From assembly GCA_965215195.1 (NCBI GenBank), contig CBDCDC010000001.1, positions 128,001-192,000 on the forward strand: 64,000 nt of DNA. Reading direction: 5' to 3'. Below the pieces are notes generated by a model, which saw nothing but the letters and a program-made list of their open reading frames with translations, did no database searches and was not told where the DNA came from. The DNA comes from Candidatus Latescibacterota bacterium. Its GTDB lineage: Bacteria > Latescibacterota > UBA2968 > UBA8231. Both the position numbers and the translations under genes were made by a program. Shown here piece by piece: positions 33,456 to 60,755 of this stretch. Numbering within the stretch: the stretch's first letter is position 1; each line of letters begins with the position of its first letter.

Positions 33456-33539
33456 CCGTTGGGGGTCTTTCGGCTGGGACTTTGCAGAGTATATTGTGTT
33501 TGCGCGTTGTACTTGACTGTATCATGGAATGGAGAACGC

Positions 33540-36603: not shown

Positions 36604-37020
36604 CTACTTTTTTCGCAGCTCTTCCGCAGCCAAGGGTATTTTTTCAATCCCCACGCGCTTGGCCACCTCAAAGAGATCTAGTAGGTACTTATGCGGGGTC
36701 TCCCGATCGGTCCGCACGACTAGCGTCAGGCTCCGGGTGCCTTCTTTTTCTCGCAACAGGACCTGCTCTAAGTTGTCCAAGGTCACGAGATGGCGGTTGA
36801 TCTCCATGCGGCCGTCCGCGGTGATCGATGCCACTAGTTTCTTCTCTTCGACGATCTGCGCTTGTTGCGCTTCGGGTAATAGGACTTGGAGGCTGTAGGG
36901 CTGCTTAAATACCGTAGTTACCATAAAGAAGATCAACAGCAAAAAGACGCAGTCGATCAATGGCGTCATATTCAATTCTTGTTCTTCGTACAGGGATTTG
37001 CGCCTAGGCATCGGACTCAT
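36604..37020 (-). CDS. exbD: ExbD/TolR-family protein
   Basis: NMTPLIDCVFLLLIFFMVTT TM segment with conserved Asp. Confidence 0.9.
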   Translation of the reverse strand: MSPMPRRKSLYEEQELNMTPLIDCVFLLLIFFMVTTVFKQPYSLQVLLPEAQQAQIVEEKKLVASITADGRMEINRHLVTLDNLEQVLLREKEGTRSLTLVVRTDRETPHKYLLDLFEVAKRVGIEKIPLAAEELRKK

Positions 37021-37433
37021 TCCTCCCGTTCCCGCACAAAAGCGATGCCCTCAACCCCAACCTCTTTGGCTTTATCCACCACGTACACGACGTGCTTCTG
37101 AGCGCACTCGCCGTCGGCCTGAATGATGATATTCTCGTTATTGGCCTCTTCCATGGCCGCGACCAGCCGGGCCGCCAACGCCGTCGGCATCACATCCTCG
37201 CCCTTGATTTGAATTTTGCCATCGCGGTCCAGCAAGACGTTGATATCTTTTTTCTTTTCTTCTGTGGCTTCGCTTTTGGCCGGCATGTCCACTTCCAGCC
37301 CTTTGGTGTGTATAAACACCGTGGTTACCATAAAGAAAATTAACAACAAAAAGACGCAGTCAATCAGTGGCGTCATATCTGGGCCGCCTTCTGCGAGAAA
37401 GCTCTCTGACCGCTGTTTTCGGTGTCTGGCCAT
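37017..37433 (-). CDS. exbD: ExbD/TolR-family protein (second)
   Basis: DMTPLIDCVFLLLIFFMVTT; IIQAD. Confidence 0.9.
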   Translation of the reverse strand: MARHRKQRSESFLAEGGPDMTPLIDCVFLLLIFFMVTTVFIHTKGLEVDMPAKSEATEEKKKDINVLLDRDGKIQIKGEDVMPTALAARLVAAMEEANNENIIIQADGECAQKHVVYVVDKAKEVGVEGIAFVREREE

Positions 37434-37456
37434 TGGGTTAACTCCCCCAGCAGGAC

Positions 37457-38203
37457 CTACTCTGTCGTTCCGTATTGTTGGCGCTGTCCCGTAGTGATCA
37501 GAGCGTTCGCAAAGGCATGTCCGTACATCTCGGCGTCTTCGAGCAAATTGTCCGCTCTACGTGCCAGATAGCGGTACAATACAATCGTCGGGATGGCGAC
37601 GATCAGCCCCGATGCCGTAGTGACCAAGGCTTGGGAAATCCCACCGGCAACGACTTTCGGGTCTCCTGCACCAGCTACGGCGATGGACTCAAAGGCGATG
37701 ATCATCCCCATAATGGTGCCGAGCAATCCCAACAGAGGGCTTATGTTGCCGATGGTATTCAGGATTGATAGGTTCTTGCCCAGATAGGCCCGAGCGGATT
37801 CCTCGGTCTGAATGACCAGCTCGTCTTTGAGGTCAGCAAGCTCCCGTTGCATCACCATAAATCTGCCCACCTCGCCACCGCCGGCCGCGTCAGTCAGGCG
37901 GATGATCTCCTCGTTCGTCTCTTTGAATTCCCGCTGTTCGATCATCAGGGTATCGTATCGTTTCAACAGCGAAGCAAATACGTAATTGAGCAGGCCCTTG
38001 CCTTGGTTGCACTCTTCCACGACCGCCTGCTCCCCGCCGTTGCGCAGCGCGGTTTCGAGCCTGTCCAGCTCATTTTGGGCCTCTTCAGGCGTGGGCAGTT
38101 GCTTGAAGATCCACAGGCGTTCAATAGAGTAGGCAATGGCTAGAATAGCACAGGCGATTAGGGGGACCATCATCGGACCGCCACTTTGAATTATATCCCA
38201 CAT
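37457..38203 (-). CDS. exbB: MotA/TolQ/ExbB proton channel
   Basis: PLLGLLGTIMGMIIAF; GGISQALVTTASGL. Confidence 0.92.
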   Translation of the reverse strand: MWDIIQSGGPMMVPLIACAILAIAYSIERLWIFKQLPTPEEAQNELDRLETALRNGGEQAVVEECNQGKGLLNYVFASLLKRYDTLMIEQREFKETNEEIIRLTDAAGGGEVGRFMVMQRELADLKDELVIQTEESARAYLGKNLSILNTIGNISPLLGLLGTIMGMIIAFESIAVAGAGDPKVVAGGISQALVTTASGLIVAIPTIVLYRYLARRADNLLEDAEMYGHAFANALITTGQRQQYGTTE

Positions 38204-38235
38204 TGCAATTGCTCCTTTTTGGCAAGAGAAGAGTT

Positions 38236-39171
38236 CTAGTCGTCTTCCTTGGCGTTTCTAGATAAGCGCTGCCCTATGCGCAAACCGGCATCAATGGCAC
38301 CGAATTTCTCAACGACCTCGGCCTTGCACAAGTGCGGCCCGATAATCTGATGCACCCTGACTAGAGCGATTCGCACCTCTTTATCATACAGCGGTAGGAC
38401 ATCGCCGTACTCGACGCGATCCAAAATACCGATGCCTAGATACACCTCGTCGGCTTCGACCGCTAGGACTTGGGCTTGCTCGCCGGAAAGGTCGATAGGG
38501 GGGCGCTCGGTCAGACTCGTAATAATTTGGCTGCTGAGGTCTCTGAAGGCGACATCGACCAGCTTGCCAAAGGCCAATTCAAAAAAACGCTCGGAACCGA
38601 AGTCAACCTTGAAGAGTTCGCGGAATACCCGATCCTGTTTGCGCGGTCGGCCGAACAGATCTAGGCCGTACGACTTTTCCGTGGAGTCTCTGAGCGTTTC
38701 AAAGGTATCGACTATTTCTCCGGTCGCTACTCTGATTAGCTGCACTTGGCTGAGGTGAACCACTGAATTGTAGGATTTATAGCCGGCCAGATTGGGATTT
38801 CCCACGGTCACGCGACGCATGCCCAGCTTCTCCACGACACCGGTAATGACCACGTCGGCACCCAAGTGCTGCCCCAGCCGCACGGCCCGGTCAATGCCGT
38901 AGTATTTTTTTAACTGTTTGTTCCGTTGAACGGCCTCAACCTCTTGCGTCGGAATGACAGAGACCGCAGCGTCGGCATCCAGATATCGACCTAGCAAATC
39001 GGGTACATCCCTAGATAAGTGCCATTCCGCCTGAAAACCGGCTCGGTCCTCAAAATCGAGCAGGGCAAGGCGCAGGGTCGGCAGCGGCCCTGCGGCCGCG
39101 ACCGCCACGTTGAGCGTTAGGGGGTCGGCCCCTGCCCAAATAGAAAAAAATAAAGTGGTTAGCGCACGCAA
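38236..39171 (-). CDS. Exported CsgG/TolB-N-like protein with a FlgT-C-like terminal domain
   Basis: LALLDFED..., AVRLGQHLGADVVITGVV; terminal VLAVEADEVYLGIG..GD. Confidence 0.55.
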   Translation of the reverse strand: MRALTTLFFSIWAGADPLTLNVAVAAAGPLPTLRLALLDFEDRAGFQAEWHLSRDVPDLLGRYLDADAAVSVIPTQEVEAVQRNKQLKKYYGIDRAVRLGQHLGADVVITGVVEKLGMRRVTVGNPNLAGYKSYNSVVHLSQVQLIRVATGEIVDTFETLRDSTEKSYGLDLFGRPRKQDRVFRELFKVDFGSERFFELAFGKLVDVAFRDLSSQIITSLTERPPIDLSGEQAQVLAVEADEVYLGIGILDRVEYGDVLPLYDKEVRIALVRVHQIIGPHLCKAEVVEKFGAIDAGLRIGQRLSRNAKEDD

Positions 39172-39179
39172 TGGGCCGG

Positions 39180-39938
39180 CTACCTGTCTGTTGCCTCCGC
39201 TTGCCGCACTTCCTCGGTTGCGATCTTTTGCTCGAACTCAAGGGCGATATCCACCGTTTCCAGCGGCTGTCCGGAGGCATCGAATTTTAGGACAAAATCT
39301 TTGAGCACTAAGCGCACTTGGCGGACTTCCTCGTTCAGTGGATCGAAGGCAATGAGCCCTGAATATTTCTCTCCTTTGAACACCTTTTGGTTTTCTATAT
39401 AGGCCGTGCTACGCGCATTGCCCATGCGCAGGTCAAAGCGATAAAATTCGTTGCCGCTCTGACCCCGAATGGCTCGGTAGTAGCGCTCAAAACTTTTGTG
39501 TGGAGAAAAAGACGGCAGACCATAGGAATGCAGGACCTCGCCCTGATTGGTGTAGAGCAACGCTTTGATCGGATCGAGCAAGACCTTGGCGTAAATATCG
39601 TTGATAACCGTGACGCGGAAAACCGTAAAGCGCTTGGGCCTGTAACCCAACAGCGGATCAATCCAATTGCCGTAGGTATAGGGATTTGTCGAGAATACCC
39701 CTTTGCTCGAATCCTCGGGCAACAGGGCATTCAATTGATCGTCCGTCATGGGTTCAACCTTGACGCGCAGCCCCTCTATGGCATATGCGGCCGCCCCGTC
39801 TTCGCCCACGATATACTGTTCCTCTTCACCTTGGGAAGAACGAGGTATCAGTTCGTTTTTGTACAGAATGGTCGGCGGAATAAAAAAGCTGCAACCGGAC
39901 GCGAATAACACTAGCATCATTCCCCAATACATGGCCAT
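39180..39938 (-). CDS. Hypothetical lipoprotein
   Basis: Lipobox FASGC; NPYTYG and YSGLIAF motifs. Confidence 0.7.
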   Translation of the reverse strand: MAMYWGMMLVLFASGCSFFIPPTILYKNELIPRSSQGEEEQYIVGEDGAAAYAIEGLRVKVEPMTDDQLNALLPEDSSKGVFSTNPYTYGNWIDPLLGYRPKRFTVFRVTVINDIYAKVLLDPIKALLYTNQGEVLHSYGLPSFSPHKSFERYYRAIRGQSGNEFYRFDLRMGNARSTAYIENQKVFKGEKYSGLIAFDPLNEEVRQVRLVLKDFVLKFDASGQPLETVDIALEFEQKIATEEVRQAEATDR

Positions 39939-39946
39939 TACCTCTC

Positions 39947-41182
39947 TTATTGGCCCCGTTGGCTAAAGAAATCGATCTGCTGCTGAGCAATAGATCCTTC
40001 CTGCGTCAGGGCAAAAATAACGGCGTTGATGCCAAATCTTAGCTGTGGTTCATTGCCGTAGTTGCGTGCCCAAGTATGGACGTATCCCTTGTCGGAGTAC
40101 ATGGCTACTAGGCGATCTTCTAGGAAAACACCCTCTAGGTAGTACGATTGCTCGGCGATGACTAAGTGATCAAGGCTACGCTGTTCGGAAAAGCTGGGAA
40201 TCTCCAACTCAGAGCCGACCGGCGGGCCGTCAAAATCGTAAAAAGTATGATACATCGGATGGTTGTTGGAAATGGGCCGCAGTTGGCCTTGCGCCCCCAA
40301 GGCACCGCGAAAGATGCGTCGCAAAGACGCCTCCCCCTGACTGAATTCTGTGGTGGGATTGGCATTGTCGACGAAGATGAACCCGCCCTGCCGCAAGTAT
40401 TTCCCCAGATTCTCTAGCTCGCGTTCCGTCAGTTCAAAGGCCTCTGTGGCGGTGATGTACACAAAAGGCGTCCGGAATAGTTCCTGAGAGTCGATAAATA
40501 AATGGGCGTCCACCCTAGCTGAGATGCCCGTCTGTTCGTTGAGGGCATCAACTAGGTTGGGGATGGCCTTGGCAGCGCTGTCAAACGTTGGCTTCAGGTC
40601 GTTGGCCCAAGCCGTACCCAGATAGACGAACCCCTTGACTTTGCGGCGGTCGGTCGGGTCTTGGATGATAAGACCCTTGTATTTGCCCGTATCCAGCGCG
40701 TTCAGATCGATCAATTCCTCGCGCATAGCAATGCGCTTCTCCGGATCTTTGGTGCCAGTGATCTTGGCGGCGAACAATTCAATGGAGCTGGTCTTCAGGT
40801 TGATTGGCACGTCTGGTTGCAGGGTGTACTCGAACGTCTGTACATTACCGAAAACACTGGAGCCTTTGAGGCGCGGACTCGCCGGCGTGGACAGCCGCGG
40901 CTTGAGTGCCGTGACCTGTTTGGTGAGGGCCCGTGGCCTGAGCTGTTGACGCTTGAGCGCAAAAGCCTTGGTGGCCCTAGGTTTGCGAATGATGAGTCGG
41001 GTCAACGCCGGTTCCGGCGCGGGCCGCTCCTCGGCACTCAATACCAAATAGACGAAGATCCCGGCTATCAGTCCCGCACCGATGAGTAAACCCCAGACTG
41101 TGTATTTGGGGGTTTCCCGCAGGAGGCGGTTAAAGTTTAGTTGATCGCTTGGCGCTTGAAAACGGCCTAGGTTTGAGACCAT
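39947..41182 (-). CDS. Membrane-anchored DUF4159-domain protein with a Pro/Lys/Arg-rich linker
   Basis: TM at about aa 27-50; PFVYIT..F..E.ENLGKYLRQGGFIFVD, HPMYHTFYDF, GINAVIFALT. Confidence 0.75.
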   Translation of the reverse strand: MVSNLGRFQAPSDQLNFNRLLRETPKYTVWGLLIGAGLIAGIFVYLVLSAEERPAPEPALTRLIIRKPRATKAFALKRQQLRPRALTKQVTALKPRLSTPASPRLKGSSVFGNVQTFEYTLQPDVPINLKTSSIELFAAKITGTKDPEKRIAMREELIDLNALDTGKYKGLIIQDPTDRRKVKGFVYLGTAWANDLKPTFDSAAKAIPNLVDALNEQTGISARVDAHLFIDSQELFRTPFVYITATEAFELTERELENLGKYLRQGGFIFVDNANPTTEFSQGEASLRRIFRGALGAQGQLRPISNNHPMYHTFYDFDGPPVGSELEIPSFSEQRSLDHLVIAEQSYYLEGVFLEDRLVAMYSDKGYVHTWARNYGNEPQLRFGINAVIFALTQEGSIAQQQIDFFSQRGQ

Positions 41183-41234
41183 ACTACGCAACTCCTGCTA
41201 AGTCCATGCTCGGAAGATGTGGTTGGGAGGCAGC

Positions 41235-41606
41235 CTAAAACACCGCCAACGTATCTACTGCTGAACGCGGTCCGAAAAACAGGCGGGCATCCACTGCCCA
41301 CACCTGAATCAGATACCAGACTCCCGGGCTCAGATCCAAGTTCGTCTCCTCGTAGGACCTTGCCCCCGCGTCTTCCAACGAGCGCGTTTTTACGACTCCA
41401 AGCGAGTCGGTGAAGCTAATGACAAAACCGGATACATTGGCTGCTGAATCCAAATGCCATGAAACCACAATCCTGCCTTCTGCGGCTACCGCCTCCACAC
41501 TAGTGGGCTGAGCAAGATATCCTCGGTGGTACTGCATAGGCAGTTCAGGGTCATTGCTGCACCCCCAGCTCAGCAGACCGAGTAAAAGATAAATTCGCGT
41601 TCCCAT
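41235..41606 (-). CDS. Fibronectin type III-like lipoprotein
   Basis: Lipobox LSWGC; IVVSW...L.PG..Y.IQVWAVD. Confidence 0.7.
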   Translation of the reverse strand: MGTRIYLLLGLLSWGCSNDPELPMQYHRGYLAQPTSVEAVAAEGRIVVSWHLDSAANVSGFVISFTDSLGVVKTRSLEDAGARSYEETNLDLSPGVWYLIQVWAVDARLFFGPRSAVDTLAVF

Positions 41607-41631
41607 ATCCAGTTTTTTCCTGAACCAGATG

Positions 41632-42174
41632 CTAAAACTGGGCAACCAGCAAAACGCCTAATGTTCTGGTCTGTGGCAATGGCGCGATCCGCATTCTCCG
41701 CTTCGCAGCGGGGGACGTCCCGTCCAACAGCAGGACATCGAGCAAATTGTAGCCGTAAATACCCACGGCTAAGACGCCAAATAGGCGGCGACGAATATGG
41801 GAGCTGTCCAGATCGGATTTTAAGTTACCGAGCCAGTGCCAGCTTTTTTCTGCTGCGTCAAAGGACCCCCCATTTTGCAGCGAAAGATAGCGTTCTTTTT
41901 CTAAGGCGAACAGATCGGCCTGCGTATTGTAATCGGCGTGCGAGGTGAGCCACCCCACTAGGGTGACGATACCGGTTGCCACCAATGCCGTGCCCTTGAT
42001 CCGCTGCCCGGCAGTTAGTTGTCCCAAACCTGGAAAGGCGACCGAAAGGGCGATGACCTGAGAATGGGATATATCATCTGTCCCTGCTTGGGCATGGAGG
42101 AGTTGGCTGGAGGCCAACATCAAGGTGCTACTCAAAATAATCAGGTGCCAGCGTTGTCTGAAGCGCATTTCCAT
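41632..42174 (-). CDS. Hypothetical exported/membrane protein (PGLGQ motif)
   Basis: Signal peptide; SVAFPGLGQ..G..KG; YGYNLLD; ends in F. Confidence 0.6.
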   Translation of the reverse strand: MEMRFRQRWHLIILSSTLMLASSQLLHAQAGTDDISHSQVIALSVAFPGLGQLTAGQRIKGTALVATGIVTLVGWLTSHADYNTQADLFALEKERYLSLQNGGSFDAAEKSWHWLGNLKSDLDSSHIRRRLFGVLAVGIYGYNLLDVLLLDGTSPAAKRRMRIAPLPQTRTLGVLLVAQF

Positions 42175-42193
42175 TGTTATACGACCTTCTACT

Positions 42194-45100
42194 TCAGAGC
42201 CGGGTGGAGACGATCCAATCCCGATGGGATTGGGCAAATAGAAAGGCGTCCCTCGTGGCGCGTTTATCCTCGAACAACTGAATCACTCGGTCGTACGCTT
42301 CTACGGCCTGACGCCATTTTCCCAGCCCCTCCAAGCAGACGCCCATGTTGCTCAGTGCGCCGACTTCGCTCTCGGTGCCGGGATAATTGTCGATCACATC
42401 CTGAAAAATCTCCACGGCCTGCTGATAGTACTGGGTCTCCTTGGTCGCTTCGGCCGAGTCCATCAGGGCGATGCCTTGTTCGTAGCGTTCATACGCGATT
42501 GCCTCCCTGAGTTCGGCGACTAGTCGAGGCACCTGAGACGCCACCGCGGCCTTGGGAAAACGTTCCTGGACGAGTAAATACAACTGCATCGCCTCTTGGT
42601 AGGCACCGCGATTATACGCGTAATCCCCGAAGGTGAAATGGACTGAAGCGGCAAATTCGCTCTGGGGATAACGCTCTAGCAGCATGCGGAATGCCTGCAT
42701 GGCCTGTTCGGCGCGATTGAGCTCGAGAAGGCACCAAGCCATATTGTACTGGGAGTCGTCGGCCGAAGGCTCGTCCGGGAATTCGCCGAGGAGACGCTGG
42801 TAATAGACGATGGCTTCTGCGTACTGACCTTGTTGGTAAAAGCTCTCCGCTAGGCCAAAAAGAATATCGGGCAATTCGCGCGCAGCGGGGTAATCTGCTA
42901 ATAGCTGTTGAAAAATTACCTGTGCTTGCCCGAATTCACGCAGGCTATAGTACGCATTGGCTAAATAAAAAGAAACCAATAGGGCCTTCTCCGAACTCCG
43001 CTCTGTGCCCTTTAATTGGGTGAATGTCTCTACGGCGCGGTCGAGCTCTCCCTGAGAGAAATAGTGTGTGCCGAGGGTCAACTGCATATCCTCGGCAAAG
43101 TGGGAATTCGGATAGGTGCTCAGCGCTTGGTTAAAAATCTCAACAGCTTCTGCGTTTTGTTCCAAGCGCAACAATGCGTCCCCTAAAATGAAATAGGCTT
43201 TCTCTTTAATGCCATTCGATCCAGAGGTGCTTTCGTCGGCAAAGTCTAGGGCCAGCAGTTGCCGGGCTGTATGCACCGTCTGCGGATAGTTGTCTTGGTC
43301 ATAGTAGAGATCCATCATGCGATTGAGCAGGTCCGCCTTTTCCTTCGGGCCATCGGCTTGGGCGATCATTTCATCTAACACTTGGACCGCATCCCCGCCC
43401 CGGTTCTGTTTGATATAAGAAAACGCTAGCGCATTCCGGGCAAAGCGGACTTTTTCTGCATCCTCCACATTTTCAATGATCCAGTGCATATCTTGCTCGC
43501 CTTGCCGGTGGTCCTCCACGGCAAAGGCGGCATTGCTGCGACTCAAGTGGATGGCCTCTACCAGCTTGCTGTCTAGCGACAGTCCCAAAGCCTCGGTAAA
43601 ATGAGTAATCGCCCGCCGATATTCCTCCTGTCCGCTATAGGCCTGCCCCAGCAGATAGTGGTAGCTACCAAGCTGTTTCTCATCCTCCACTTGGTCAAAA
43701 GCCGCTTCGAGGGCGGCGATGGCCTCAGAGTACTTGCCCTGTGTTAAAAAGACATGCCCTCCGCCTAGGCGTGCTTGGACGAAATAAGGCGACGCCGGGG
43801 CGACCCGCAGGAAGGCGACGCCGGCCCGCTCGAGCGCCCCTTCGGCTTGGCGCGAAAGAGCCAAGCGCATCAGGGCTTCGTTTGTGAACTCACTGTTGCC
43901 ATAAGTGCGCAACAACTGCTCGGTGCGCTCGGCCGCGGCGGCGTACTGGCCCTGTGCAAATAGCAATTCGGCCAGTTGTATCAGTGCTCGTTGGGTATAG
44001 ACTTCTTCTGTGTCCTCGTGGATAATCGCTTCGTACGCGGCGCGGGCACGTGCTACCGATGAAGCGGTGGCTAATGCCTGATGAGCTAGGGCGCGGTTGA
44101 ATTGGGCGTCTAGGACATAGGCTTCAGCAGCGTTGTACAAAGTGTCGTACTGGGCAATGGCGTACTCTAACTGATCGGTGGCCCCTGATCGATTGCCCGC
44201 CTCCAGATATTGTTGCCCCAACTGTTGATGGCTGCTACCGATTCGGTAGCGCACGCGGTCTTGGCTAAAACCTGCCACCCGTGCGATATCGCCGTATCCT
44301 TGAAGATAAATTCGGTATTCCTGAATCGCCTGCTCGTAAAGTCCTTGACTAAACAGGCGTTCGGCCAGGGCATATTGGATGCGCGCTTTTAGGGTGCGGT
44401 CCTGTGATTGATCGATGGCTTCGCGATAGGTCCGCAGCGCCGCATCTAGGTTGCCCTGTTCCCGATACAGGTCGGCCATGCGCAAATAGGCTTCTTCTAC
44501 CAGACTGCGCTCGGTGCTGAACAGGTCAATAACGCGGCGATAGGCTTGGAGCCCCTCGTCGAAACTGCCCAATTGGGCGTAACAGGTTCCGACGCGAATC
44601 ATTGCCTTAGCAGCCAGTTCTAGGGCTGTCTCATCCACCAGACCAGCCATCTTTTCCCGCTTCATCTGCAACAGCTCATCTTCGCTGAGCGCTTCGATGC
44701 GCTGGCGCTCCACTAAGCGGCGGTAGTAGCCGATAGCCCGCAGACAATCTCCCTGTTCCCGATGACACTCGCCAATTTGAAAGAGGCTGCGATCAGACTG
44801 GTAGCCGGTAGAAAACCTCACTAGCAGGGCCTCAAAAGATTGGATGGCGCGGTCATAGTTTTTGGTCTCGTAGTGAGCCCATCCCGTATTGTAGTAGGCA
44901 TTTGCGATTTGGGGACTATTGGGATAGTTGGAGATCATCTCCGCGGATGCGGCGATCACGGCAGGGTAGGCTTTAGCCGTAAAGGAAAGATCGATGAGTC
45001 GGCTATGGGCCCGAATCCGGAGCACCTGACTGGTAGCTGTTGCGATCACGTGGCGGAACTCAGCCACGGCCCGGGCAAAGGCACTGTCTGATAGGGCTTG

Positions 45101-45436: not shown

Positions 45437-45461
45437 AGCGCGTTCTCTCCCGAACTACCGA

Positions 45462-48584: not shown

Positions 48585-48585
48585 C

Positions 48586-51375: not shown

Positions 51376-51390
51376 GTGATTCCACCCGTA

Positions 51391-54081
51391 TTAGCCAATG
51401 TAGACCCTAAAGAAATATTCTAGGAAACCGTCTTGGGGTCGGGTCGAGCCGGTGAATTTCTTAATCGTATGATATCCTCCCAACAGTAGAGTCAGGTCGT
51501 AGCCGCGGTAATTGCTCTTGTTCTGGAAAAATGCCGTGTAGGTCAGGCGCGTGAACTCACTCTCTGGACGGGCCGCATCGAGAAAACGCTCGCGCCAGAA
51601 AGGCAAGCCTTGGATTCCCGTTTTGAGGACGGTCTTAGCCGTCAACTGATAGTCCACGCGCAGAATGGGCATGAGCCAGCGGCTCTGGGTGTCCGGGATC
51701 TGGAGTTCGGACGACTTGTGTCGCTGGTAGATATGCTTGAACTGGGGGAGAATGCTGAAACGTCCCCGGGTTATGGTGTAGTCGACCTTGTTCACCATGG
51801 CAAAACGGGTCATCGTGCCCGGTTTGGTTGCTACGGGATCGGCTAGGATCTGTCCCTCTAGGTCGATATGGGTAAAGGAGATGATATTGCGCATGTTCAA
51901 CACCGGCAGAGTCGTCAGAGCCCACTCAAAAAAGCTCTGGTTGTTGAGGCTGTTCCTGTTTTCCAGCCGGTCCGGGCTTAAGGTGGTGTCGGAAGTGGGG
52001 ATAAAGGTCGTATTTTGGATGTTGTCCTTCACCCGCTTAATGCGGTGATTAAGGCGCACATAGCCCCAATTTTTCCAGTCGCGCTGGTACTGGGTTTCCA
52101 GATAGCGGGAGTGGTTGCGCGTACCCAGGACTGGCTGACGCACCCGGTACAGGCCCAGCCGTAGCTGCGTGCGCTCAGTAGGTTGTAGCGAGACAAAACC
52201 ATGAAAGCCGCGATGGTCCACTGGATATAGGTAGTCGGGCAGATTGTCGTTTTCGCGAAAATCGACTGTGCCGTTGTTGTCGAAATCATCTCCGAAAACC
52301 AAGTTGGGCAGTTCGGCATAGTAGCCTATAAAGGGTTGTGTTGCATCGGAACCCCGATCCAAGTCTAGGTTGAAATCGAGGATACCGTCGCCATTAGGAT
52401 CGAAGCCGGGGAACACGCCGTGGCCTTGGCCGCTGGCGCTCTTGTAGGGGGCCAATGGATCGTCGCGTTCTACCCGATCGGGCCAGTCGTCCAGATCGTC
52501 GTTATCCTCGACTAGTGCGAACGAATCGTAAAGTCGGCCGCCGACGGTAGGGCCTACCTTGGAAGAAAAAAACAAAGAGAAATCTGTGGTGTAGTCGTGC
52601 GGCACATCGAATAACTCAAAGCCTACCTCTGCCCGGTTGTATATAGGACGCAGCATATTGACATAATACATTGAACTTTCGCGCTTGTAGCGCTTGCCTC
52701 GAGCTGCGGGCACCTTAAAAAAGGTCGTGCTGCGGGCGAGTTCTCCCTCTAATTGAAAGCCCATAAAGGTGGCTGCAAAATTAAAACCGAGTAGCGAGAG
52801 GCCAGTGGGAAAACCGTAGTTAAAGCGGATTTGGCGCAAATTGCTGCGCTGGCCAGCTTGGCCGGTGGCGCGTGCCGCATTGTACCAGTCGTAGTAAAAA
52901 TCATCATCGCCCGGTGCCAATAGGGGTACCTGTACGGCTCCGACCACATCTAGGCTGTAGTCATTGGCCACGACGGCACTGAAATCGATCCGGCTCACCG
53001 TATCAGGCACGACGTATTCATAATAGATGACGTCCGTGTCGTGGGCACTAAGGGGGGTGGCTTGAGTGGCGGGGGCTACATCTTGGGTAATGCCGGCTAG
53101 CAGAGAACGAAAAAAAGGCGTATTGCTGGCATCGACCACTGCGTGCAGCCAGTCGCGATTGCGGCGCAAATAGCCGATTTCGTGTGGTTGCAACAGGATC
53201 GTGCTGCTCAGATCTGTAGTCACCGGAATGTGTTCGAGCAGATTACTGATCCGGCCCACCCGCACCGGCAGTACGGGGACATCGTTTACGAACATATCCA
53301 GTTGATGCACTTCGGCACCAGAGCCTTTGTGCGGCGCATCGTCGCTAATAAAAACGAATACCTTGCGCAAGCCGTCCTGCATTACCTGAGGCACGGTGCC
53401 TCTCAAGCTGTTGGTTTTGGCATTAGCTTCGGCGTCAAAGCGATGCACGTTGACATAGGTGGATCCTATCTTGAGGATATCGCCGATCTGGCTCTCCCAG
53501 TGCCCGCCGAACAGGCTCGTACCAAAAATCCGGCGTTGGGTTGCGTTTTGTTCGAGGGATCCTAAACCCGATGCAATCACCGGATCGGTGAGATGCGTGC
53601 CAATAATGCTGAAACGGCTCTTGCGGGAAGAGCCGTCCCAGCGAATGCCGTTGTAGCTAGGCAGATTCAAGGTCATCGGGGTGAAGAAGGTGCGGATATG
53701 GTCCCCAATTATCAAGCGGGTGGACCAGGAGCCGAAGCCCTCGTTGGCGATGATCAGCTTCTGGAAGAAGCGATCGTAGCGCGCATTGCGAGATTCAAAG
53801 CTGCCCCTAATCCCGGGTGCGTCCCGGCGAATTTCGCTGTAATCAACCACATTGACACCATCGATCAGCAGGTCGCCGAACAGGTCGAAGCGGCGATTCT
53901 CATCTTCTAGGTCATAGTCGCGATAGCCCGATGCACCGTAGTTTTCAAACAGCTCGTTGGCCCACAAGCGCCGGTAGTCCCGCGATAGAAATTGGCCCTC
54001 GACTAGATCGGCACCAACTGCTAGCAGGAGACAAAGAATGCTAAGGGCATAGCTGGGAGTGTGCATAAATGCACGTTTCAT
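51391..54081 (-). CDS. Large exported protein, paralog A
   Basis: Signal peptide; LVEDNDDLDDWPD, GVFPGFDPNGDG; ends YFFRVYIG; start 54081 or 54066. Confidence 0.75.
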   Translation of the reverse strand: MKRAFMHTPSYALSILCLLLAVGADLVEGQFLSRDYRRLWANELFENYGASGYRDYDLEDENRRFDLFGDLLIDGVNVVDYSEIRRDAPGIRGSFESRNARYDRFFQKLIIANEGFGSWSTRLIIGDHIRTFFTPMTLNLPSYNGIRWDGSSRKSRFSIIGTHLTDPVIASGLGSLEQNATQRRIFGTSLFGGHWESQIGDILKIGSTYVNVHRFDAEANAKTNSLRGTVPQVMQDGLRKVFVFISDDAPHKGSGAEVHQLDMFVNDVPVLPVRVGRISNLLEHIPVTTDLSSTILLQPHEIGYLRRNRDWLHAVVDASNTPFFRSLLAGITQDVAPATQATPLSAHDTDVIYYEYVVPDTVSRIDFSAVVANDYSLDVVGAVQVPLLAPGDDDFYYDWYNAARATGQAGQRSNLRQIRFNYGFPTGLSLLGFNFAATFMGFQLEGELARSTTFFKVPAARGKRYKRESSMYYVNMLRPIYNRAEVGFELFDVPHDYTTDFSLFFSSKVGPTVGGRLYDSFALVEDNDDLDDWPDRVERDDPLAPYKSASGQGHGVFPGFDPNGDGILDFNLDLDRGSDATQPFIGYYAELPNLVFGDDFDNNGTVDFRENDNLPDYLYPVDHRGFHGFVSLQPTERTQLRLGLYRVRQPVLGTRNHSRYLETQYQRDWKNWGYVRLNHRIKRVKDNIQNTTFIPTSDTTLSPDRLENRNSLNNQSFFEWALTTLPVLNMRNIISFTHIDLEGQILADPVATKPGTMTRFAMVNKVDYTITRGRFSILPQFKHIYQRHKSSELQIPDTQSRWLMPILRVDYQLTAKTVLKTGIQGLPFWRERFLDAARPESEFTRLTYTAFFQNKSNYRGYDLTLLLGGYHTIKKFTGSTRPQDGFLEYFFRVYIG

Positions 54082-54115
54082 AACGCGAATTACAATAGCC
54101 CCAAGACACAAGGCG

Positions 54116-54146
54116 AAAAATGATTACCCGAGCCATCTCGGGTGAA
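54116..54146 (-). terminator. Intergenic stem-loop (weak terminator or RNA-stability hairpin)
   Basis: acccgag-ccat-ctcgggt, followed on the minus strand by aatcattttt. Confidence 0.45.
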
Positions 54147-54181
54147 CAGTAAACGACCGCGAACGCTTTGACCTACGCGCT

Positions 54182-56323
54182 TCAGTAAGCCAACCCGATG
54201 ACGCCCGTGCCTACTTTTTTGTTGGGTTTTAGGTCTACGACAATGCGAAACACGTACAAGCCGGGCGGCAGTACTTCACCGTCATCTCCGCGTCCGTCCC
54301 AGCGACCGGGCAGATTGGCGTTGAGGCCATCTCTAGGTACATAATTCCCGGCATTGAGGGTGTGCATAGGGAGAGTACAGACCAAGTGGCCTCCCAGATC
54401 GTAGATTTCAAAGTGGACCTGGGCATCATGCACTCGTCCCAAAACAAAACCCAAAATGGCTTCGTCGTTGATGGTGTCGCCATTAGGCGTGAAGGTTGCA
54501 GGATGGGCCTTCACATTATCGAGAATAGCAATGTCGAAATCGGTTGCCGAGGCAGTGATGGAATACGCCAATCCAGTATTTGGATTGGTACCCTCGCGCT
54601 CTTGGACCCGCAGCGAGGAGACCGCATCGGGCGGAGAAAGCAATCCCTGGAAGGCGTGGCTAGCCGCTAGCAGCCGGGTAGTAAAGGGTATAACCAGTTC
54701 CGTAGTGCCGGTTTCAGAGGTAATAGGCGGGTCGAAAACCAACACTAGGGAATCGTTACTGGCCACTACATCGGCAATGCCGGCATCACCCAAGCCTTGG
54801 ACGGAGGGCTTGTCCAGACTGGCCGGCCACGGAGTTGTAATCGCCAAGCGTCCAATCCCGGCATCATCCGCTTTGATGTCTAGTTCGAGCGTATAGGTAA
54901 AAAGCGTATCCACGCCAATCGAAGCGCGTAGCGGCAAGATGGAAGCTGCTGCGCGAGAGGCCGGGGTGGGACCGCTGTCGTAGAAGACAACTAGGCTGTC
55001 TAGCACTGGCCCCTCCGTCAACGCTTGGGTCGCAAGGCGGGATTCGAATTGCAGGAAACGGCGCGGTTCAGGGACGTCCAGCAGTCTATCGAGGGCCGGT
55101 GCCCAGTCCGACCAGGCACTCCAGCTTTGGCCATCGTCGCCACTGCGAAAGCGCAGACTCATTTCCGCGTTGGACGGTACTTGGCCGAACCATTGGACTC
55201 GTTCAAAATTCTTCAGATCATCGGTGCCCAGATTTAGCTGGGGAGACCGGTAGATACCCTGCTGGTCCAGTCCTTGAACATAGACTTCCAGTTCACCCAC
55301 CCGCGGCGCAGCATTGCGATTGGAAAACTCGGTGATAGTCAGGCGCACGTGACGGGCGGAAATGGGCGGAAAGACCACTTCGCTCTCCTGAAATGTGGCA
55401 ATCTGATTATGCGATCCGACTTCTAGGAATCCGACCCCGTCCTTGCTCACTAGAATGCTATACCCGCGCAGCGAGAGATCTTCGTAACTGGTTCTACCCG
55501 AAGGGGGCTGTGTGATTACCCGCACCCGTTCAATGGAGAACAGGCGGCCCAGATCGGTTCCAACACTCTGTAAAAGCGCACCAGCTCCCTTGCGAAAATT
55601 CACCGAAGTGCTGAGGTTGCCGTCCACCATATTGGGCTCGGTCGACAGCGTATTGAAGGCCATATTCTGGCCGGCCAAATCGCGTAGTTGCAACCCGCCT
55701 TGATGGCCGGCCAAGCCACCGGCAAACCCTGCCATACTCTGATTCCTAGTCAGATCCAAATCCGCAAATTCGGCATAGATACCCGGAGCGAGATTGCCAG
55801 CCTGAACGGGTTGCCAATGCACGGCTCCGCCATTTTCCTCGTAATCTCCTAAATTTCTCTGGCGGAGGGTCATCCAATCCGCATCTTCCTCGTTGGGAAG
55901 CGGGGTGCCAGTCCAGAACCAAGGATTGACCCGACCCGTGGGCGAACTGACAAAGCGCTCTTCCCCCCCACTCAGCACACAGAACAGTCCGTACGGACTC
56001 TGCCTACCATCGTGTTGGACGATTACGGCTACGTGATTCACCCGGCGCTTAAAGGAAACTTCGTAGGATTGTGCCGCATCAGGCCCCTGAGCACTGCCCA
56101 CTAGATCGCCGTTGAGATAGAGGGTATAGTGGCCCCCGACGGCAATCTGGAGCTGGCCGTCCGTCTTACTTGCGAACTCGAAAAAACCGAGATAATACGT
56201 GGTCGTGGGCCAGCTAGAGATAGCGGCGCGCACGAGTTCTTGGGATGACAGGGTACTGCCGTACAGCAGTATCGCCAAGGCCATCAGAACCGCTGGCAGG
56301 CAAAAGGATTTATCGGTTTGCAC
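54182..56323 (-). CDS. Secreted protein with a discoidin/F5-8-like beta-sandwich and a C-terminal FlgD-Ig domain
   Basis: Signal peptide; DGNLST, DLG, ARHVRL..ELEVY; FTPNGD.IND..IYDLGG..WDGR...GLY. Confidence 0.75.
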   Translation of the reverse strand: MQTDKSFCLPAVLMALAILLYGSTLSSQELVRAAISSWPTTTYYLGFFEFASKTDGQLQIAVGGHYTLYLNGDLVGSAQGPDAAQSYEVSFKRRVNHVAVIVQHDGRQSPYGLFCVLSGGEERFVSSPTGRVNPWFWTGTPLPNEEDADWMTLRQRNLGDYEENGGAVHWQPVQAGNLAPGIYAEFADLDLTRNQSMAGFAGGLAGHQGGLQLRDLAGQNMAFNTLSTEPNMVDGNLSTSVNFRKGAGALLQSVGTDLGRLFSIERVRVITQPPSGRTSYEDLSLRGYSILVSKDGVGFLEVGSHNQIATFQESEVVFPPISARHVRLTITEFSNRNAAPRVGELEVYVQGLDQQGIYRSPQLNLGTDDLKNFERVQWFGQVPSNAEMSLRFRSGDDGQSWSAWSDWAPALDRLLDVPEPRRFLQFESRLATQALTEGPVLDSLVVFYDSGPTPASRAAASILPLRASIGVDTLFTYTLELDIKADDAGIGRLAITTPWPASLDKPSVQGLGDAGIADVVASNDSLVLVFDPPITSETGTTELVIPFTTRLLAASHAFQGLLSPPDAVSSLRVQEREGTNPNTGLAYSITASATDFDIAILDNVKAHPATFTPNGDTINDEAILGFVLGRVHDAQVHFEIYDLGGHLVCTLPMHTLNAGNYVPRDGLNANLPGRWDGRGDDGEVLPPGLYVFRIVVDLKPNKKVGTGVIGLAY

Positions 56324-56339
56324 CGTTGTTTACCTACAT

Positions 56340-56374
56340 AAAAAGTGCTGCCGGCTGGTACGCCGGCAGCACTT
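56340..56374 (-). terminator. Rho-independent terminator-like hairpin after the first operon gene
   Basis: Perfect 13-bp stem aagtgctgccggc/gccggcagcactt, 6-nt loop, T-run on the minus strand. Confidence 0.75.
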
Positions 56375-56389
56375 ACTTAGTCAGTTACT

Positions 56390-58291
56390 TTACTTGAGGA
56401 ATGTGACCTTTTTACTCAACTGCAGATTGGGTGCTTCAATCCGGTAGAGGTACACCCCAGTGGATACTTCTGTACCGCTGTCATCCTTGCCGTCCCACGT
56501 GACCGAGAATTTACCTGGACCCATAACCTGATTGGCCAACACGCGCACCAACTGGCCAGTCTGGCTGTAGACCTTGATCTGGATCGGTGCCTGCCAAGGC
56601 AGGTCGAAGCGAATCGTAGTCTCGGGGTTGAAGGGATTGGGGTACGCATTGCCCAGCGCAGGAGCGTTGGGTAATGCGGCACCTTCCAACGCTTCGATCG
56701 CAGTGCTGGCCGAGCCCAAAAGCACCTGCTTCTGATCATAAGGGAACTGGGCCACCGGATGGGTGGGCGGCACTGCGCCGCTATCCTCGGGCACCCATTC
56801 GTTAGAAGCTAGGGCATCGCCGAAACCGCCGATAATCATGTACACGCCGTCCCAGTCGGCACCCTCGTCGACCACGGCCACGTGCTGCGACCAAGTCAAC
56901 GGGGCCTGCTTGGGCTCGAACTTGAACAGACCGGAGCCGTCTTCACCCAGCATGGCACCAAAACTGGTGTTGTCCAAGCCGTTTTCACAGACCGAGACCC
57001 AGCCCCACTTATTGGCGAAAATCGAGTACTTGAAGTTGGGTGCTTCGGTGTGGCCGTAGAGCAGGTCGCCAAACGTGCCGTCTTCCGAATTGAAAGCGCG
57101 GGTATCGCCAAAGCCATCGCCGTTGCGGTTCATCCACATCAGATCGCCATCGTAGCTGTGGCGCACAATGCACGAGGTGTGGTGTGAGGTAGTGGTGATG
57201 CCTTCAGGAGGGGGCTCGCCATTGTAAAAGGCTGCCGTCTCCATAGGCCCCCCGACGCGGTCGGAGCCTGCATTATCGTAGATAAACAGGTCGGTCACGT
57301 CCCAAGTGTCCAGCTTGGCACCAGTCTCGACATCGTAGGATACGATCTGGGCCACCGTGCCGGTCACGCCGGCCGTGACGTAGGCGACGGTCTTGTCGGG
57401 ATTGGTAATGAGGGTGCGCTGTCCCGGGCTGCCGGGCAGTTCCTCAATGTTGATGATGCCGTCCTCAGCGCCGTTGTCAATGCCCCAGTCCTCCACCGGA
57501 GCTAGGCGATTGGAACTCCAGTCCACGGTCCAGCGCATGAGGCGGTTGGACTGGCCGATGCCGATGAACTCGGTCATATCGCTGTTGAGCGGCACACCGG
57601 ATAGCGGCACGCCACCGCCCGCGTCGGTGATGGCAGTCTGGTCGATCAGATCGAATCCCTCGAAGTTCTCGATCCAGTCGTTGTTCATATTGTTGTTGCG
57701 GGTATGATCGAAAACGCGGTTGTTGCCCGTGTCGATGATGAAGCGACCCGGAGTTCCCAGTTTGCGGAAGACGGCACCAGCTACCAGATGGGGCGCGGCT
57801 TCGTCGTCAAAGGCGGCCAAGAACAGCTTGTAGCTTCCTGCGGGCACCGCGTTGCCGTCGTTGTCGCGGCCGTTCCAAACGATGGCGTTGTCTCCTTCTT
57901 CAAAGCGCTGGCCGTTGGACTTGAACACGAGGGGATTGACCCCTTCGTACACGTGCCAGCCCGGATCGGGATGCTCGGGATCGTTATAGGGTCCCGGTCC
58001 TTCGCCCGCGATGGTCAGAGGGGGATTCGCGTCAGCATGGTAGATGATCAGCCAGACTGTGGCACCGCTACCCGAAAGGGTAAAAGGGATCTCCAAGTCC
58101 GAACCATCAAAAGCGTAGCTGGATACATCTGACAAGCCTTCGATCTCCAAGACCGTAGGACTGCCGCCGCTAGTCATATCGGACAGGCTGGTGACATCGG
58201 GATTACCAGCATGGACGAACTGGGCGTTGGCCGTTCCTGCTGCAAGCAGTAGGGATGCCGCCCCTATGGCAATACTTCTCAAGAAGTTCAT
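56390..58291 (-). CDS. Secreted protein with an N-terminal FlgD-Ig-like module and a C-terminal T9SS-typeA/FlgD-like domain
   Basis: Signal peptide (ANA); WNGRDNDGNAVPAGSY; YPNPFNPETTIRF...WDGKDDSG..STGVYLYRI...KKVTFLK. Confidence 0.8.
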   Translation of the reverse strand: MNFLRSIAIGAASLLLAAGTANAQFVHAGNPDVTSLSDMTSGGSPTVLEIEGLSDVSSYAFDGSDLEIPFTLSGSGATVWLIIYHADANPPLTIAGEGPGPYNDPEHPDPGWHVYEGVNPLVFKSNGQRFEEGDNAIVWNGRDNDGNAVPAGSYKLFLAAFDDEAAPHLVAGAVFRKLGTPGRFIIDTGNNRVFDHTRNNNMNNDWIENFEGFDLIDQTAITDAGGGVPLSGVPLNSDMTEFIGIGQSNRLMRWTVDWSSNRLAPVEDWGIDNGAEDGIINIEELPGSPGQRTLITNPDKTVAYVTAGVTGTVAQIVSYDVETGAKLDTWDVTDLFIYDNAGSDRVGGPMETAAFYNGEPPPEGITTTSHHTSCIVRHSYDGDLMWMNRNGDGFGDTRAFNSEDGTFGDLLYGHTEAPNFKYSIFANKWGWVSVCENGLDNTSFGAMLGEDGSGLFKFEPKQAPLTWSQHVAVVDEGADWDGVYMIIGGFGDALASNEWVPEDSGAVPPTHPVAQFPYDQKQVLLGSASTAIEALEGAALPNAPALGNAYPNPFNPETTIRFDLPWQAPIQIKVYSQTGQLVRVLANQVMGPGKFSVTWDGKDDSGTEVSTGVYLYRIEAPNLQLSKKVTFLK

Positions 58292-58404
58292 TTCTTCTCC
58301 TCGTCTCCTTCGTTTAGTTAAAGCGTGATTTTTCGTTAAGTAATTTTAGAAAGCAAAATTCAATACCTTAGCCTCCTTTCTTAAAATTCCGGGTGGTTTG
58401 CCGT

Positions 58405-58433
58405 ATGATAAGTTGATTTTTTTCAATTATCAA
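58405..58433 (-). promoter_or_regulatory. Operon promoter TTGATA-N17-TATCAT overlapped by a palindromic operator
   Basis: TGATAA-g-TTGA-N6-TCAA-TTATCA at 58406-58432 in an AT-rich intergenic region. Confidence 0.6.
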
Positions 58434-60614: not shown

Positions 60615-60755
60615 TGCACTTCCTTCCGTCAATGGAGCTTACTGGCAGCAGAAAGTGATTTATAGTATATATGGCCTGACAGCACAAGAGGTTTTTCATC
60701 CTTTGCGTAGGTTGCGCATCCGATCCATCCTTGGCGCAAGCATTGGAGTTAGCGG

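Follow-up and report, generated by a model that had tools for sequence, protein, structure and literature searches.

A candidate proton-motive-force-linked envelope system with giant predicted outer-membrane barrels in Latescibacterota-labelled bacteria and its conserved core operon

Introduction

The 64,000-nucleotide stretch of DNA analysed here (hereafter the window) belongs to a Candidatus Latescibacterota bacterium (contig CBDCDC010000001.1, positions 128,001 to 192,000) and carries 14 co-oriented open reading frames (ORFs), g1 to g14, on the minus strand between window positions 58291 and 36604. In our best explanation, these genes form the conserved core locus of an envelope system that is linked to the proton motive force and specific to the lineage of these Latescibacterota-labelled bacteria. 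Rather than the stand-alone machine that a preliminary description of this DNA had proposed, the operon is the core of a set of about 38 loci per genome sharing one barrel family. The evidence comes from the composition of the operon, the modelled barrel fold, the secretion tails of the surface proteins, the synteny of the motor genes, the expansion of barrel cassettes through the genome and the fusion of some members of a small lipoprotein family (G10) to a TonB C-terminal domain. Our tentative reading is that a Ton- or Agl-Glt-like motor energises surface platforms of giant barrels and lectin-like proteins for capture and uptake.

To our knowledge, motors of the ExbBD/TolQR class power few outer-membrane processes, namely TonB-dependent uptake, Tol-Pal, and Agl-Glt gliding and spore-coat assembly. 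Here such a motor appears to be coupled to a new family of very large barrels, to lectins with type IX secretion system (T9SS) tails and to two candidate couplers other than TonB. It is already known that a 5:2 stator can power an outer-membrane process via a periplasmic coupler, and what is new here is the set of barrels and couplers and their layout in cassettes; among open-access main texts, no description was found of the barrel family, of the cassettes, or of DUF4159 or DUF6785/6784 in such a context. With around 50 barrel genes per genome in a phylum widespread in the sea and in sediments, the system probably shapes how these uncultured bacteria meet substrates and surfaces, and the G10-TonB fusion offers a concrete, testable handle on how force would reach the barrels.

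The gene content in the preliminary description was two secreted proteins, three large paralogous outer-membrane proteins, a large tetratricopeptide repeat (TPR) protein, four small envelope proteins around a DUF4159 protein, and one ExbB and two ExbD subunits, all closely spaced and co-oriented. ORF coordinates and Pfam and NCBIfam searches bear this list out, the labels of g7, g8 and g11 being the weakest (Table 1).

A Family of Giant Predicted Barrels

The paralogs g3, g4 and g5 (27-30% mutual identity) gave no match at E <= 0.1 in Pfam and NCBIfam, including the Plug (PF07715), TonB-dependent receptor (TBDR; barrel domain PF00593), SusC/D and PorP/SprF families. The AlphaFold2 model of g4, built from a 35-sequence alignment, is a beta-barrel of about 24-26 long strands with a predicted local distance difference test score (pLDDT) of 74.9 and a predicted template modelling score of 0.74, and it is interrupted at about residues 229-345 by a beta-rich insert that we take to recall the plug of ushers. 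The stretches modelled with low confidence are 1-62, 489-503, 533-580 and 707-727, and the first 60 residues of the family, although modelled poorly, are conserved in places. The most conserved part of the family, at 520-625, carries DNDD...PD...DG...D motifs and, judging from these residues, may bind calcium.

Structural comparisons with Foldseek and VIA-align placed Deinococcus SlpA nearest to the g4 model (Foldseek E 3.5e-8, Z 14.9, 406 residues aligned, rmsd 8.5), and also returned the ushers PapC (Z 12.7) and FimD (Z 11.1), MtrB, LptD, SprA (Z 11.8) and TonB-dependent transporters. All of these are generic large barrels matched with TM-scores of about 0.2, and no family was identified in this way; two homologues of the barrel family matched the Pfam model of the SlpA barrel below threshold. 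No plug was aligned in any of these comparisons, the transporter matches covering barrel strands only. A diverged-TBDR identity of g3-g5 was rejected on the missing Plug domain and the different strand count. The model thus predicts that g3-g5 are new plug-less giant outer-membrane barrels, neither TBDRs nor SprA fragments, in line with what the preliminary description had assumed of them. A profile search of 1.84 billion proteins with this family returned 959 representative clusters, all unannotated, and the homologues all came from metagenome-assembled genomes (MAGs) labelled Latescibacterota or binned as Gemmatimonadota.

Secreted Tail-Bearing Proteins

Ahead of the barrel genes lie g1, whose orthologs in relatives are 45-93% identical, and g2, a member of a large family (G2). 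Both g1 and the G2 family carry C-terminal domains of T9SS cargo, of type A and of a type-B-like kind, respectively. Among 20 G2 members scanned, CHU_C was found in 19 (E <= 0.01), FlgD_ig in 18 and the F5/8 type C (discoidin) domain in 12, while none of the 20 had a catalytic domain; the g2 of the window scored 19.1 bits against CHU_C, under the cut-off of 27. The family consensus contains a TPNGDGxND motif, and the genome holds 125 G2 ORFs by search and 123 by a count of called genes.

None of the T9SS core genes SprA, PorV and GldK/L/M/N was found inside the operon. The genome encodes a 1969-aa SprA homologue 67 kb away (C1:253047-258179; contigs are defined below), its PorV-like matches are all under cut-off, and GldL and GldM gave no match with models that were silent in control genomes too. 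Taken together, the tails and the SprA homologue suggest that g1 and the G2 proteins are exported by the SprA-type T9SS of this genome. For the G2 proteins, attachment to the barrels is more likely than passage through them as cargo. The proposal that the two lead proteins are the cargo or substrate-binding parts calls for amendment: g1 may be a separately terminated unit, and g2 is more likely barrel-bound.

Barrel Loci and Cassettes Across the Genome

The genome of the window (6.1 Mb in two contigs, C1 and C2) contains 52-53 barrel genes, 123-125 G2, 18-21 G10 and 21-22 DUF4159 genes, together with four ExbB-type genes among nine MotA/ExbB-family matches overall. On the gene maps, 52 barrel genes are spread over about 38 loci, in which a cassette recurs in the order fC (~300 aa, no family), G10 lipoprotein, three G2 proteins (~640, 690 and 780 aa), barrel (~890 aa), SurA-like protein with a double peptidyl-prolyl isomerase (PPIase) domain (~580 aa), and FG-GAP/ASPIC-UnbV and/or TPR proteins. 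A polytopic DUF6785+DUF6784 membrane protein is often part of the cassette; one cassette lies beside a sugar-type ATP-binding cassette (ABC) transporter and a DHDPS-family gene, and another beside an extracytoplasmic function (ECF) sigma factor.

Barrel neighbourhoods, taken as the sequence within 10 kb of a barrel gene, make up 14.8% of the genome and hold 95 of the 123 G2 genes, 14 of 18 G10, 27 of 34 SurA-like PPIase and 12 of 16 fC genes, as well as 14 of 42 DUF6785 and 20 of 52 FG-GAP/ASPIC genes, and just 5 of the 88 other tail-bearing proteins. Two more triple-barrel operons (C2:3753744-3790452 and C2:2510362-2532747) repeat the make-up of the window without exbBD genes of their own, and two more motor clusters (C2:1886094-1901638 and C2:1629464-1648161) combine TPR, ExbB, ExbD and G10 genes, the second also including DUF4159.

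These cassettes could also be seen as a dedicated secretion or assembly system, each barrel being the translocon or usher of the neighbouring G2 proteins, with SurA-like and G10 proteins as escorts and ExbBD providing the energy, much as GldLM supplies energy to the T9SS. The PapC, FimD and SprA fold neighbours, the insert interrupting the barrel and the SurA-like genes beside barrels all agree with this explanation. Moreover, the extended SprA translocon (PDB 8gl8, from its title) also holds a PPIase and a TPR lipoprotein, and g6 reached 106 bits, under the cut-off of 250, against the PorW/SprE-type TPR model. Nevertheless, we consider it improbable, since a SprA homologue is already present for proteins with such tails, the fold matches are all to generic large barrels, and the discoidin domains and membrane-permease neighbours would be left unexplained. 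As regards chaperone-usher systems, the barrel model resembles PapC and FimD in fold, and Pfam matched no usher or PapD domain in the operon proteins.

Some further arrangements were observed in the same genome. The cluster at C2:1636574-1645063 (L062) encodes a CBM9-like protein, G10, a TraF_2-like small barrel, a 1081-aa TPR protein, ExbB, a single ExbD and a DUF4159 protein with an S-x3-H motif in its TM helix; this compact cluster may show the motor module at its simplest. At C2:2144396-2173026, C2:2381538-2395177 and C2:2769968-2781471, DUF4159 genes (~450 aa) alternate with genes of tail-bearing proteins (~700 aa) and no barrels are present, which may represent a second DUF4159-linked system. 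Three 272-aa ORFs of the MotA/ExbB family (E ~3e-10) were also found (C2:1025681-1025992, C2:4035946-4036257 and C2:2895702-2896013), two of which adjoin barrel cassettes.

Motor, Scaffold and Candidate Couplers

The operon ends in an ExbB + ExbD stator of one TolQ-like and two TolR-like subunits (g12, g13 and g14), which together with the large TPR protein g6 gives the Agl-Glt-like motor make-up anticipated in the preliminary description. All NCBIfam ExbB, ExbD, TolQ and TolR equivalog models stayed under cut-off: g12 scored 83.5 bits against TolQ and 70-72 bits against ExbB, and g13 and g14 scored best against TolR. By inspection, both g13 and g14 have an aspartate in the transmembrane (TM) helix (...PLIDCVF... 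in g13), which we take to be the proton-binding residue. The repeats of g6 are of the YbgF/CpoB and BamD kind, and g7 and g8 each occur in two copies in the genome, those of g7 each in a triple-barrel operon. As had been stated before, no TBDR plug-barrel, TolB/Pal or Gld/Por core component is present in the operon, since Pfam and NCBIfam returned no Plug, TBDR, SusC/D, TonB_C, TolB, Pal, Gld, Por or PorP/SprF match on the 14 proteins.

Two protein families are candidates for the coupling of this motor to the outer membrane. The first is represented by g9, with a cytoplasmic N-terminus, one TM helix, a strongly conserved basic and proline-rich linker and a DUF4159 head whose nearest PDB structure is 4i66 (E 3.9e-13); this three-part layout is that of TonB and TolA. 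The second is the G10 lipoprotein family. In the model of g10 (pLDDT 83.4), a beta-sandwich carries a helical insert; the model matches only generic lipoprotein sandwiches of the YcdA/YjhA/MPT63 type (Z <= 8.2, Foldseek E >= 1.9e-3), and the g10 profile found nothing among PDB sequences. Neither g10 nor g11 has a Pfam family. The CsgG/FlgT-like label given to g11 is a lead only: language-model look-alikes carry LpoB or TolB_N domains, but a profile search of PDB sequences returned FlgT alone, with an E value of 0.57 that is not significant.

Among 120 G10 homologues listed, 19 are at least 360 aa long (360-435 aa) and have a C-terminal tail, which is a TonB C-terminal domain of the AgmX/PglI (GltG/GltJ) type. 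In the genome of the window, the long G10 protein P0326 (C2:2514739-2516085) is encoded by the G10 gene of the third triple-barrel operon, inside a TPR-DUF4159-G10-G2-barrel operon, and its tail scored 65.7 bits against NF033768 (cut-off 40), the only match of that model in the genome (C2:2515720-2515947); this protein is a lipoprotein and is not TM-anchored. Tails from relatives also matched TIGR01352 tonB_Cterm (cut-off 27.1), with 42.6 bits as the highest score. The long G10 protein P0313 scored 77.5 bits against NF033768, 42.6 against tonB_Cterm and 31.4 against Pfam TonB_C (cut-off 24.6). Matches to the GltG/J models were local and confined to the TonB_C part (31-45 bits, where the cut-offs are 450-650). 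This fusion suggests that G10 may share the site of action of TonB_C, the periplasmic face of outer-membrane barrels. The absence of TonB noted in the preliminary description holds for the operon of the window, but the system is not wholly TonB-less because a G10 lipoprotein of a sister operon is fused to a TonB C-terminal domain.

The same components could be assigned to a Tol-Pal-like envelope maintenance system in a lineage without canonical Tol-Pal, with TolQ, two TolR, a TolA-like g9, a TolB_N/CsgG-like g11, g10 in place of Pal and a CpoB-like TPR protein, the barrels and surface proteins being co-located passengers. The best scores of g12 and of g13 and g14, the match of g6 to the tol_pal_ybgF model and the domains carried by the g11 look-alikes point in this direction, and the TolB and Pal models gave no match above cut-off genome-wide. 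Non-canonical transducers and Tol-like variants are also known from phyla of the FCB and PVC groups (Williams-Jones et al., 2025; PMC12204202; here and below, what is said of this paper and of Luciano et al., 2011, Gorasia et al., 2022 and Liu et al., 2025 refers to the part of each text that was available). However, TolA, a TolB beta-propeller and Pal are absent from the operon, where the CpoB/YbgF-type TPR alone is matched, and Pfam detected no OmpA-like peptidoglycan-binding domain. The Tol matches of the motor genes are all under equivalog cut-offs, most G10 genes lie beside barrels (14 of 18), and each genome has at least three paralogous forms of the module, all accompanied by the barrel family, which would be unexpected for a single housekeeping system. 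We therefore regard this explanation as very improbable. Elsewhere in the genome (C2:1673161-1676682), a 394-aa ORF with TolB-like PD40 repeats lies beside a 398-aa paralog of g11 (CsgG/TolB_N-like), and the two may form a split TolB-like pair.

Conservation Across Relatives

Regions around g11 orthologs were compared in eleven genomes. The full g1-g14 order was found in six relatives (G122, G055, G111, G061, G043 and G150); two regions cut by contig ends (G114 and G090) are colinear as far as the sequence runs, in G079 g1-g11 are present and the exbB ortholog lies on the opposite strand at a distance of about 10 kb, and G148 and G060 have distant g11 paralogs only. The best conserved proteins are g9 (69-96% identical), ExbB (70-93%) and g10 (61-94%). 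Chance adjacency of the operon genes was rejected on this synteny.

In a broader comparison, 80 loci around g9 homologues were divided into three paralog classes, by a heuristic assignment and with some loci cut by contig ends, and ExbB was found within 9 kb of the DUF4159 gene in 41 loci, in three arrangements. The window orthologs (class 1) have it in 22 of 28 loci, 20 of them co-oriented downstream; in class 2 (45-48% identical to g9) the fraction is 6 of 18, with exbB directly after g9; and in class 3 (~43% identical) it is 13 of 34, 12 of which are divergent and upstream of the TPR gene. Long G10 genes occur in 33 of the 34 class 3 loci. A functional link of the motor is argued by the fact that all three arrangements keep it beside TPR, DUF4159, G10 and barrel genes, and the expectation that these genes travel with exbBD in other genomes was thus confirmed.

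The distribution across the phylum was surveyed in 150 genomes and is descriptive only, given the kinship among them. In the taxonomic family f1, barrel and G10 genes were found in all 64 genomes and g11 in 61 of 64. All three gene families were absent from f2 (0 of 30), f3 (0 of 18), f4 (0 of 2) and f8 (0 of 5), and were found in the remaining small families of the phylum.

In some genomes of relatives from the same lineage (loci L082 and L083), a g11-exbB-exbD-exbD block 87-95% identical to that of the window directly follows a gene for a 700-aa transglutaminase-like protein and adjoins a paralogous barrel operon whose last genes are g10 and one resembling g1. In these loci the motor genes have been shuffled and yet kept within the system.

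Comparison with Known Systems

The Agl-Glt core complex of Myxococcus and relatives comprises aglR/Q/S and gltD/E/G/C, and for most bacteria no function has been assigned to this core (Luciano et al., 2011; PMC3169522). The operon resembles Agl-Glt/Nfs in having one TolQ-like and two TolR-like subunits beside a secreted TPR protein of more than 1000 aa (PMC3169522), in the AgmX/PglI-type TonB_C, found here in a sister operon, and in lineage-specific outer-membrane modules added to a conserved motor core, as far as the available text goes. It differs in that the Glt/Agl equivalog models were all under cut-off on the window proteins, where the NCBIfam Glt models gave nothing at E <= 0.1 on g1-g5 and g7-g11 and nothing at E <= 0.001 on g6 and g12-g14. 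Moreover, barrels of about 900 aa from a new family stand here in contrast to the small GltA/B/H/K proteins, and TonB_C is carried by a lipoprotein instead of a TM-anchored protein with a forkhead-associated (FHA) domain, no GltG-type TM protein being present in the window. T9SS-type tails and about 38 loci per genome are further differences.

The motors of the T9SS and ExbBD belong to the same 5:2 stator class. Bacteroidota keep their type-B cargo at the surface on a cognate PorP/SprF barrel (Gorasia et al., 2022; PMC9143113), and their outer-membrane proteins, such as SprF, are dragged laterally by a periplasmic track (Liu et al., 2025; PMC12635249). The type-B-like tails and the position of cargo genes directly upstream of a barrel gene recall the arrangement described in the available part of these papers. 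However, the barrels found here have no PorP_SprF match and are about three times larger, and the motor encoded with them is of the ExbBD type, GldL and GldM remaining without a match as in the control genomes.

These likenesses define the main rival of the uptake reading, a motor-driven system of surface adhesins that would serve gliding, adhesion or surface transport, in which the barrels would be mobile carriers of type-B-tailed lectin-like adhesins, moved or tensioned by ExbBD via periplasmic TPR, G10 and DUF4159 links. Its models are Flavobacterium SprB-SprF on a GldLM-driven track and Myxococcus Agl-Glt/Nfs. It is consistent with the Agl-Glt make-up of the motor and TPR genes (PMC3169522), the AgmX/PglI-type TonB_C fused to G10, the type-B-like tails of 19 of 20 G2 members, the order of G2 and then barrel, which recalls type-B cargo and PorP/SprF (PMC9143113), and the lateral driving of Bacteroidota outer-membrane proteins by an internal track (PMC12635249). 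We consider it unlikely on several grounds. All Glt/Agl equivalogs are under cut-off and the GltG/J matches concern the TonB_C part only, while barrels of about 900 aa without a PorP/SprF match are far bigger than an anchor needs and showed no C-terminal twin cysteines when their C-termini were inspected. Besides, GldL and GldM were not found (with the caveat on their models given above), and about 38 loci, some of them near ABC transporters or DUF6785 proteins, look more substrate-specific.

With Ton and Sus systems the operon shares the ExbB/ExbD motor, an expanded family of outer-membrane barrels of about 900-1000 aa, non-catalytic glycan-binding surface neighbours, and occasional ECF sigma factor and inner-membrane transporter genes. 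The differences are that the operon lacks Plug, TBDR barrel domain, SusD and TonB, the barrels have more than 22 strands, the surface proteins are T9SS-tailed rather than lipid-anchored, and most cassettes contain a SurA-like chaperone. In Fibrobacter succinogenes, the TPR proteins FSU_2397/2398 and an ExbB-ExbD-ExbD-TonB cluster (FSU_2400-2403) are up on cellulose, and the authors propose that they act with surface complexes and unidentified barrels in oligosaccharide import (Raut et al., 2019; PMC6851124). This bacterium of the FCB group likewise combines TPR proteins with an exbB-exbD-exbD cluster, which differs in having TonB.

In the available literature, the closest published gene arrangement is that of transducers with non-TonB globular heads, encoded beside TPR, tolQ-like and two heterologous tolR-like genes in PVC and FCB phyla, for which no function is known (Williams-Jones et al., 2025; PMC12204202). 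Like those transducers, g9 has a TM helix, a linker that is proline-rich or disordered, and a globular alpha/beta head of a type other than TonB_C. Compared with the available part of that paper, the head is here DUF4159 in place of an annotated von Willebrand factor type A domain, and the TM helix of g9 has neither the histidine nor the SHLS motif, whereas the distant DUF4159 paralog adjoining ExbD at C2:1636574 has S-x3-H. Barrels, lectins and cassettes lie outside that description.

Proposed Function

The system may serve import, export or movement. We put forward, as a tentative reading built on these analogies, that it could serve to capture glycans or other macromolecular nutrients or polymers and to take them up with energy from the motor. 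Uptake is favoured by the likeness in logic to Sus-like loci: the barrels are large and numerous, lectin domains are present, and permease, ABC-transporter and sigma-factor genes lie nearby. Under this proposal, g1 and g2 would leave the cell by the SprA-type T9SS, and the lectin-like, type-B-tailed g2 would remain on the surface bound to its cognate barrel, as type-B cargo does on PorP/SprF. From the periplasmic side, g9, the G10 family or both would let the motor pull on or gate the barrels, with g6 as a scaffold. The roughly 35 further barrel loci would be satellite cassettes for different substrates, a Sus-like analogue made from different parts.

Several findings weigh against uptake or against the coupling proposed for it. 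DUF4159 genes overall are not enriched near barrels (4 of 21), and the enrichment statistics of the other families are overstated, as they treat tandem paralogs as independent. No histidine was found in the TM helix of any of 12 g9-type sequences, and TonB and TolA dock on their motors through a histidine-bearing TM motif. TonB_C is absent from the operon of the window, and hhalign of the TonB_C tails against the g7-g11 profiles returned nothing (probabilities 0.1-0.2). The g4 model is uncertain at 1-62 and 533-580, and the most conserved acidic segment (DNDD...) falls into this uncertain part. In addition, neither a glycoside hydrolase nor a peptidase was found in the four cassettes scanned, and uptake does not obviously lack a route in this genome because 21 ordinary Plug-type receptors and a classical exbB-exbD-exbD-tonB cluster occur elsewhere in it. 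The SurA-like chaperone, the type-B tails and the order of G2 and barrel fit display or secretion at least equally well, and every relative is an uncultured MAG.

In a broader and more doubtful form of the uptake reading, Latescibacterota would have their own paradigm of outer-membrane nutrient acquisition, parallel to TonB-dependent and Sus systems. Dozens of substrate-specific cassettes per genome, each with a plug-less giant barrel, three T9SS-delivered lectin-like proteins and a small lipoprotein, would share a TonB-less ExbB-ExbD-ExbD motor through new couplers, namely an anchor with a DUF4159 head and a lipoprotein, some forms of which bear a TonB C-terminal domain.

Operon Organization and Neighbouring Genes

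Table 1. Location of the operon genes, associated signals and flanking genes in the window.
Feature	Position	Strand	Basis
Sigma-70-like promoter match, 5' of g1	58433-58405	-	TTGATA-17-TATCAT, 10/12
g1, 633 aa, secreted, T9SS type-A C-terminal domain	56390..58291	-	FlgD_ig 2.1e-17; TIGR04183 31.8 bits (cut-off 23)
Terminator-like hairpin in 66-bp g1-g2 gap	56374-56343	-	13-bp GC-rich stem, then U-run
g2, 713 aa, discoidin and type-B-like T9SS tail, G2 family	54182..56323	-	F5/8 type C 2.8e-8; weak FlgD_ig/CHU_C
g3, 906 aa, barrel paralog	51391..54111	-	30% identical to g4; no Pfam/NCBIfam family
g4, 929 aa, barrel family, modelled member	48586..51375	-	AlphaFold2 model; no family
g5, 1049 aa, barrel paralog	45462..48611	-	E 1.2e-65 to g4; no family
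g6, 1080 aa, TPR, N-terminal signal or anchor	42194..45436	-	TIGR02795 YbgF/CpoB-type TPR, 217 bits, 7 stretches
g7, 201 aa, membrane protein	41632..42237	-	Weak DUF5683, 7.1e-5, under cut-off
g8, 136 aa, lipoprotein	41235..41645	-	Weak fn3, 0.0047, under cut-off; lipobox by inspection
g9, 414 aa, DUF4159 head	39947..41191	-	DUF4159 1.3e-29
g10, 252 aa, lipoprotein, G10 family	39180..39938	-	Cys16 nearly invariant; no Pfam family
g11, 311 aa, periplasmic, CsgG/LpoB/FlgT_C-like lead	38236..39171	-	Language-model look-alikes, score 0.94
g12, ExbB/TolQ-family stator	37457..38203	-	MotA_ExbB (PF01618) 8.4e-29
g13, ExbD/TolR paralog 1	37017..37433	-	ExbD (PF02472) 2e-28
g14, ExbD/TolR paralog 2	36604..37020	-	ExbD (PF02472) 7.4e-29; 36% identical to g13
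Transglutaminase-core-like protein, 700 aa, upstream neighbour	58530..60632	-	1.4e-5; upstream in G122, G111, G061
DUF6785+DUF6784 polytopic membrane protein, divergent	60756..62714	+	2.1e-132
FG-GAP/ASPIC-UnbV and TPR protein, 1018 aa, convergent	33459..36515	+	Domain scan

According to the ORF coordinates, the gaps within g1-g14 are at most 70 bp and four gene pairs overlap slightly. A single promoter region had been assumed for the whole operon, and a sigma-70-like match does lie upstream of g1; it is weak evidence because the region has no excess of promoter-like sites (6 found against 7.0 expected), and transcription of all 14 genes from one promoter is not established, given the hairpin after g1. 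This hairpin has a folding energy of -31.3 kcal/mol (z -4.0), and a hairpin with a U-run occupies the equivalent position in all five relatives having the g1-g2 gap (G122, G061, G111, G043 and G150), with z-scores of just -1.3 and -1.8 in two of them. The stem sequences are unrelated among relatives, so that the position is kept and the sequence is not; in G055 and G079 only 5-8 bp separate g1 from g2. Hence g1 may be a separately terminated unit, or a strongly expressed and partly terminated one ahead of g2-g14, and the conserved position of the hairpin suggests that g1 could be expressed above the remaining genes.

The transglutaminase-core-like, DUF6785/6784 and FG-GAP/ASPIC plus TPR neighbours are all kept in several relatives. 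A paralog of the transglutaminase-core-like gene is present in the second triple-barrel operon, and the FG-GAP/ASPIC-UnbV plus TPR gene is convergent downstream of the exbD genes in many relatives. Past the divergent DUF6785 gene, two further G2-family genes begin at window positions 63548-64000 (+) and run onward (C1:191548-193569 and 193449-195920), so the locus continues beyond the end of the window. The G+C content of the operon region (36001-58000) is 0.52-0.58, against 0.58-0.67 for most of positions 1-36000.

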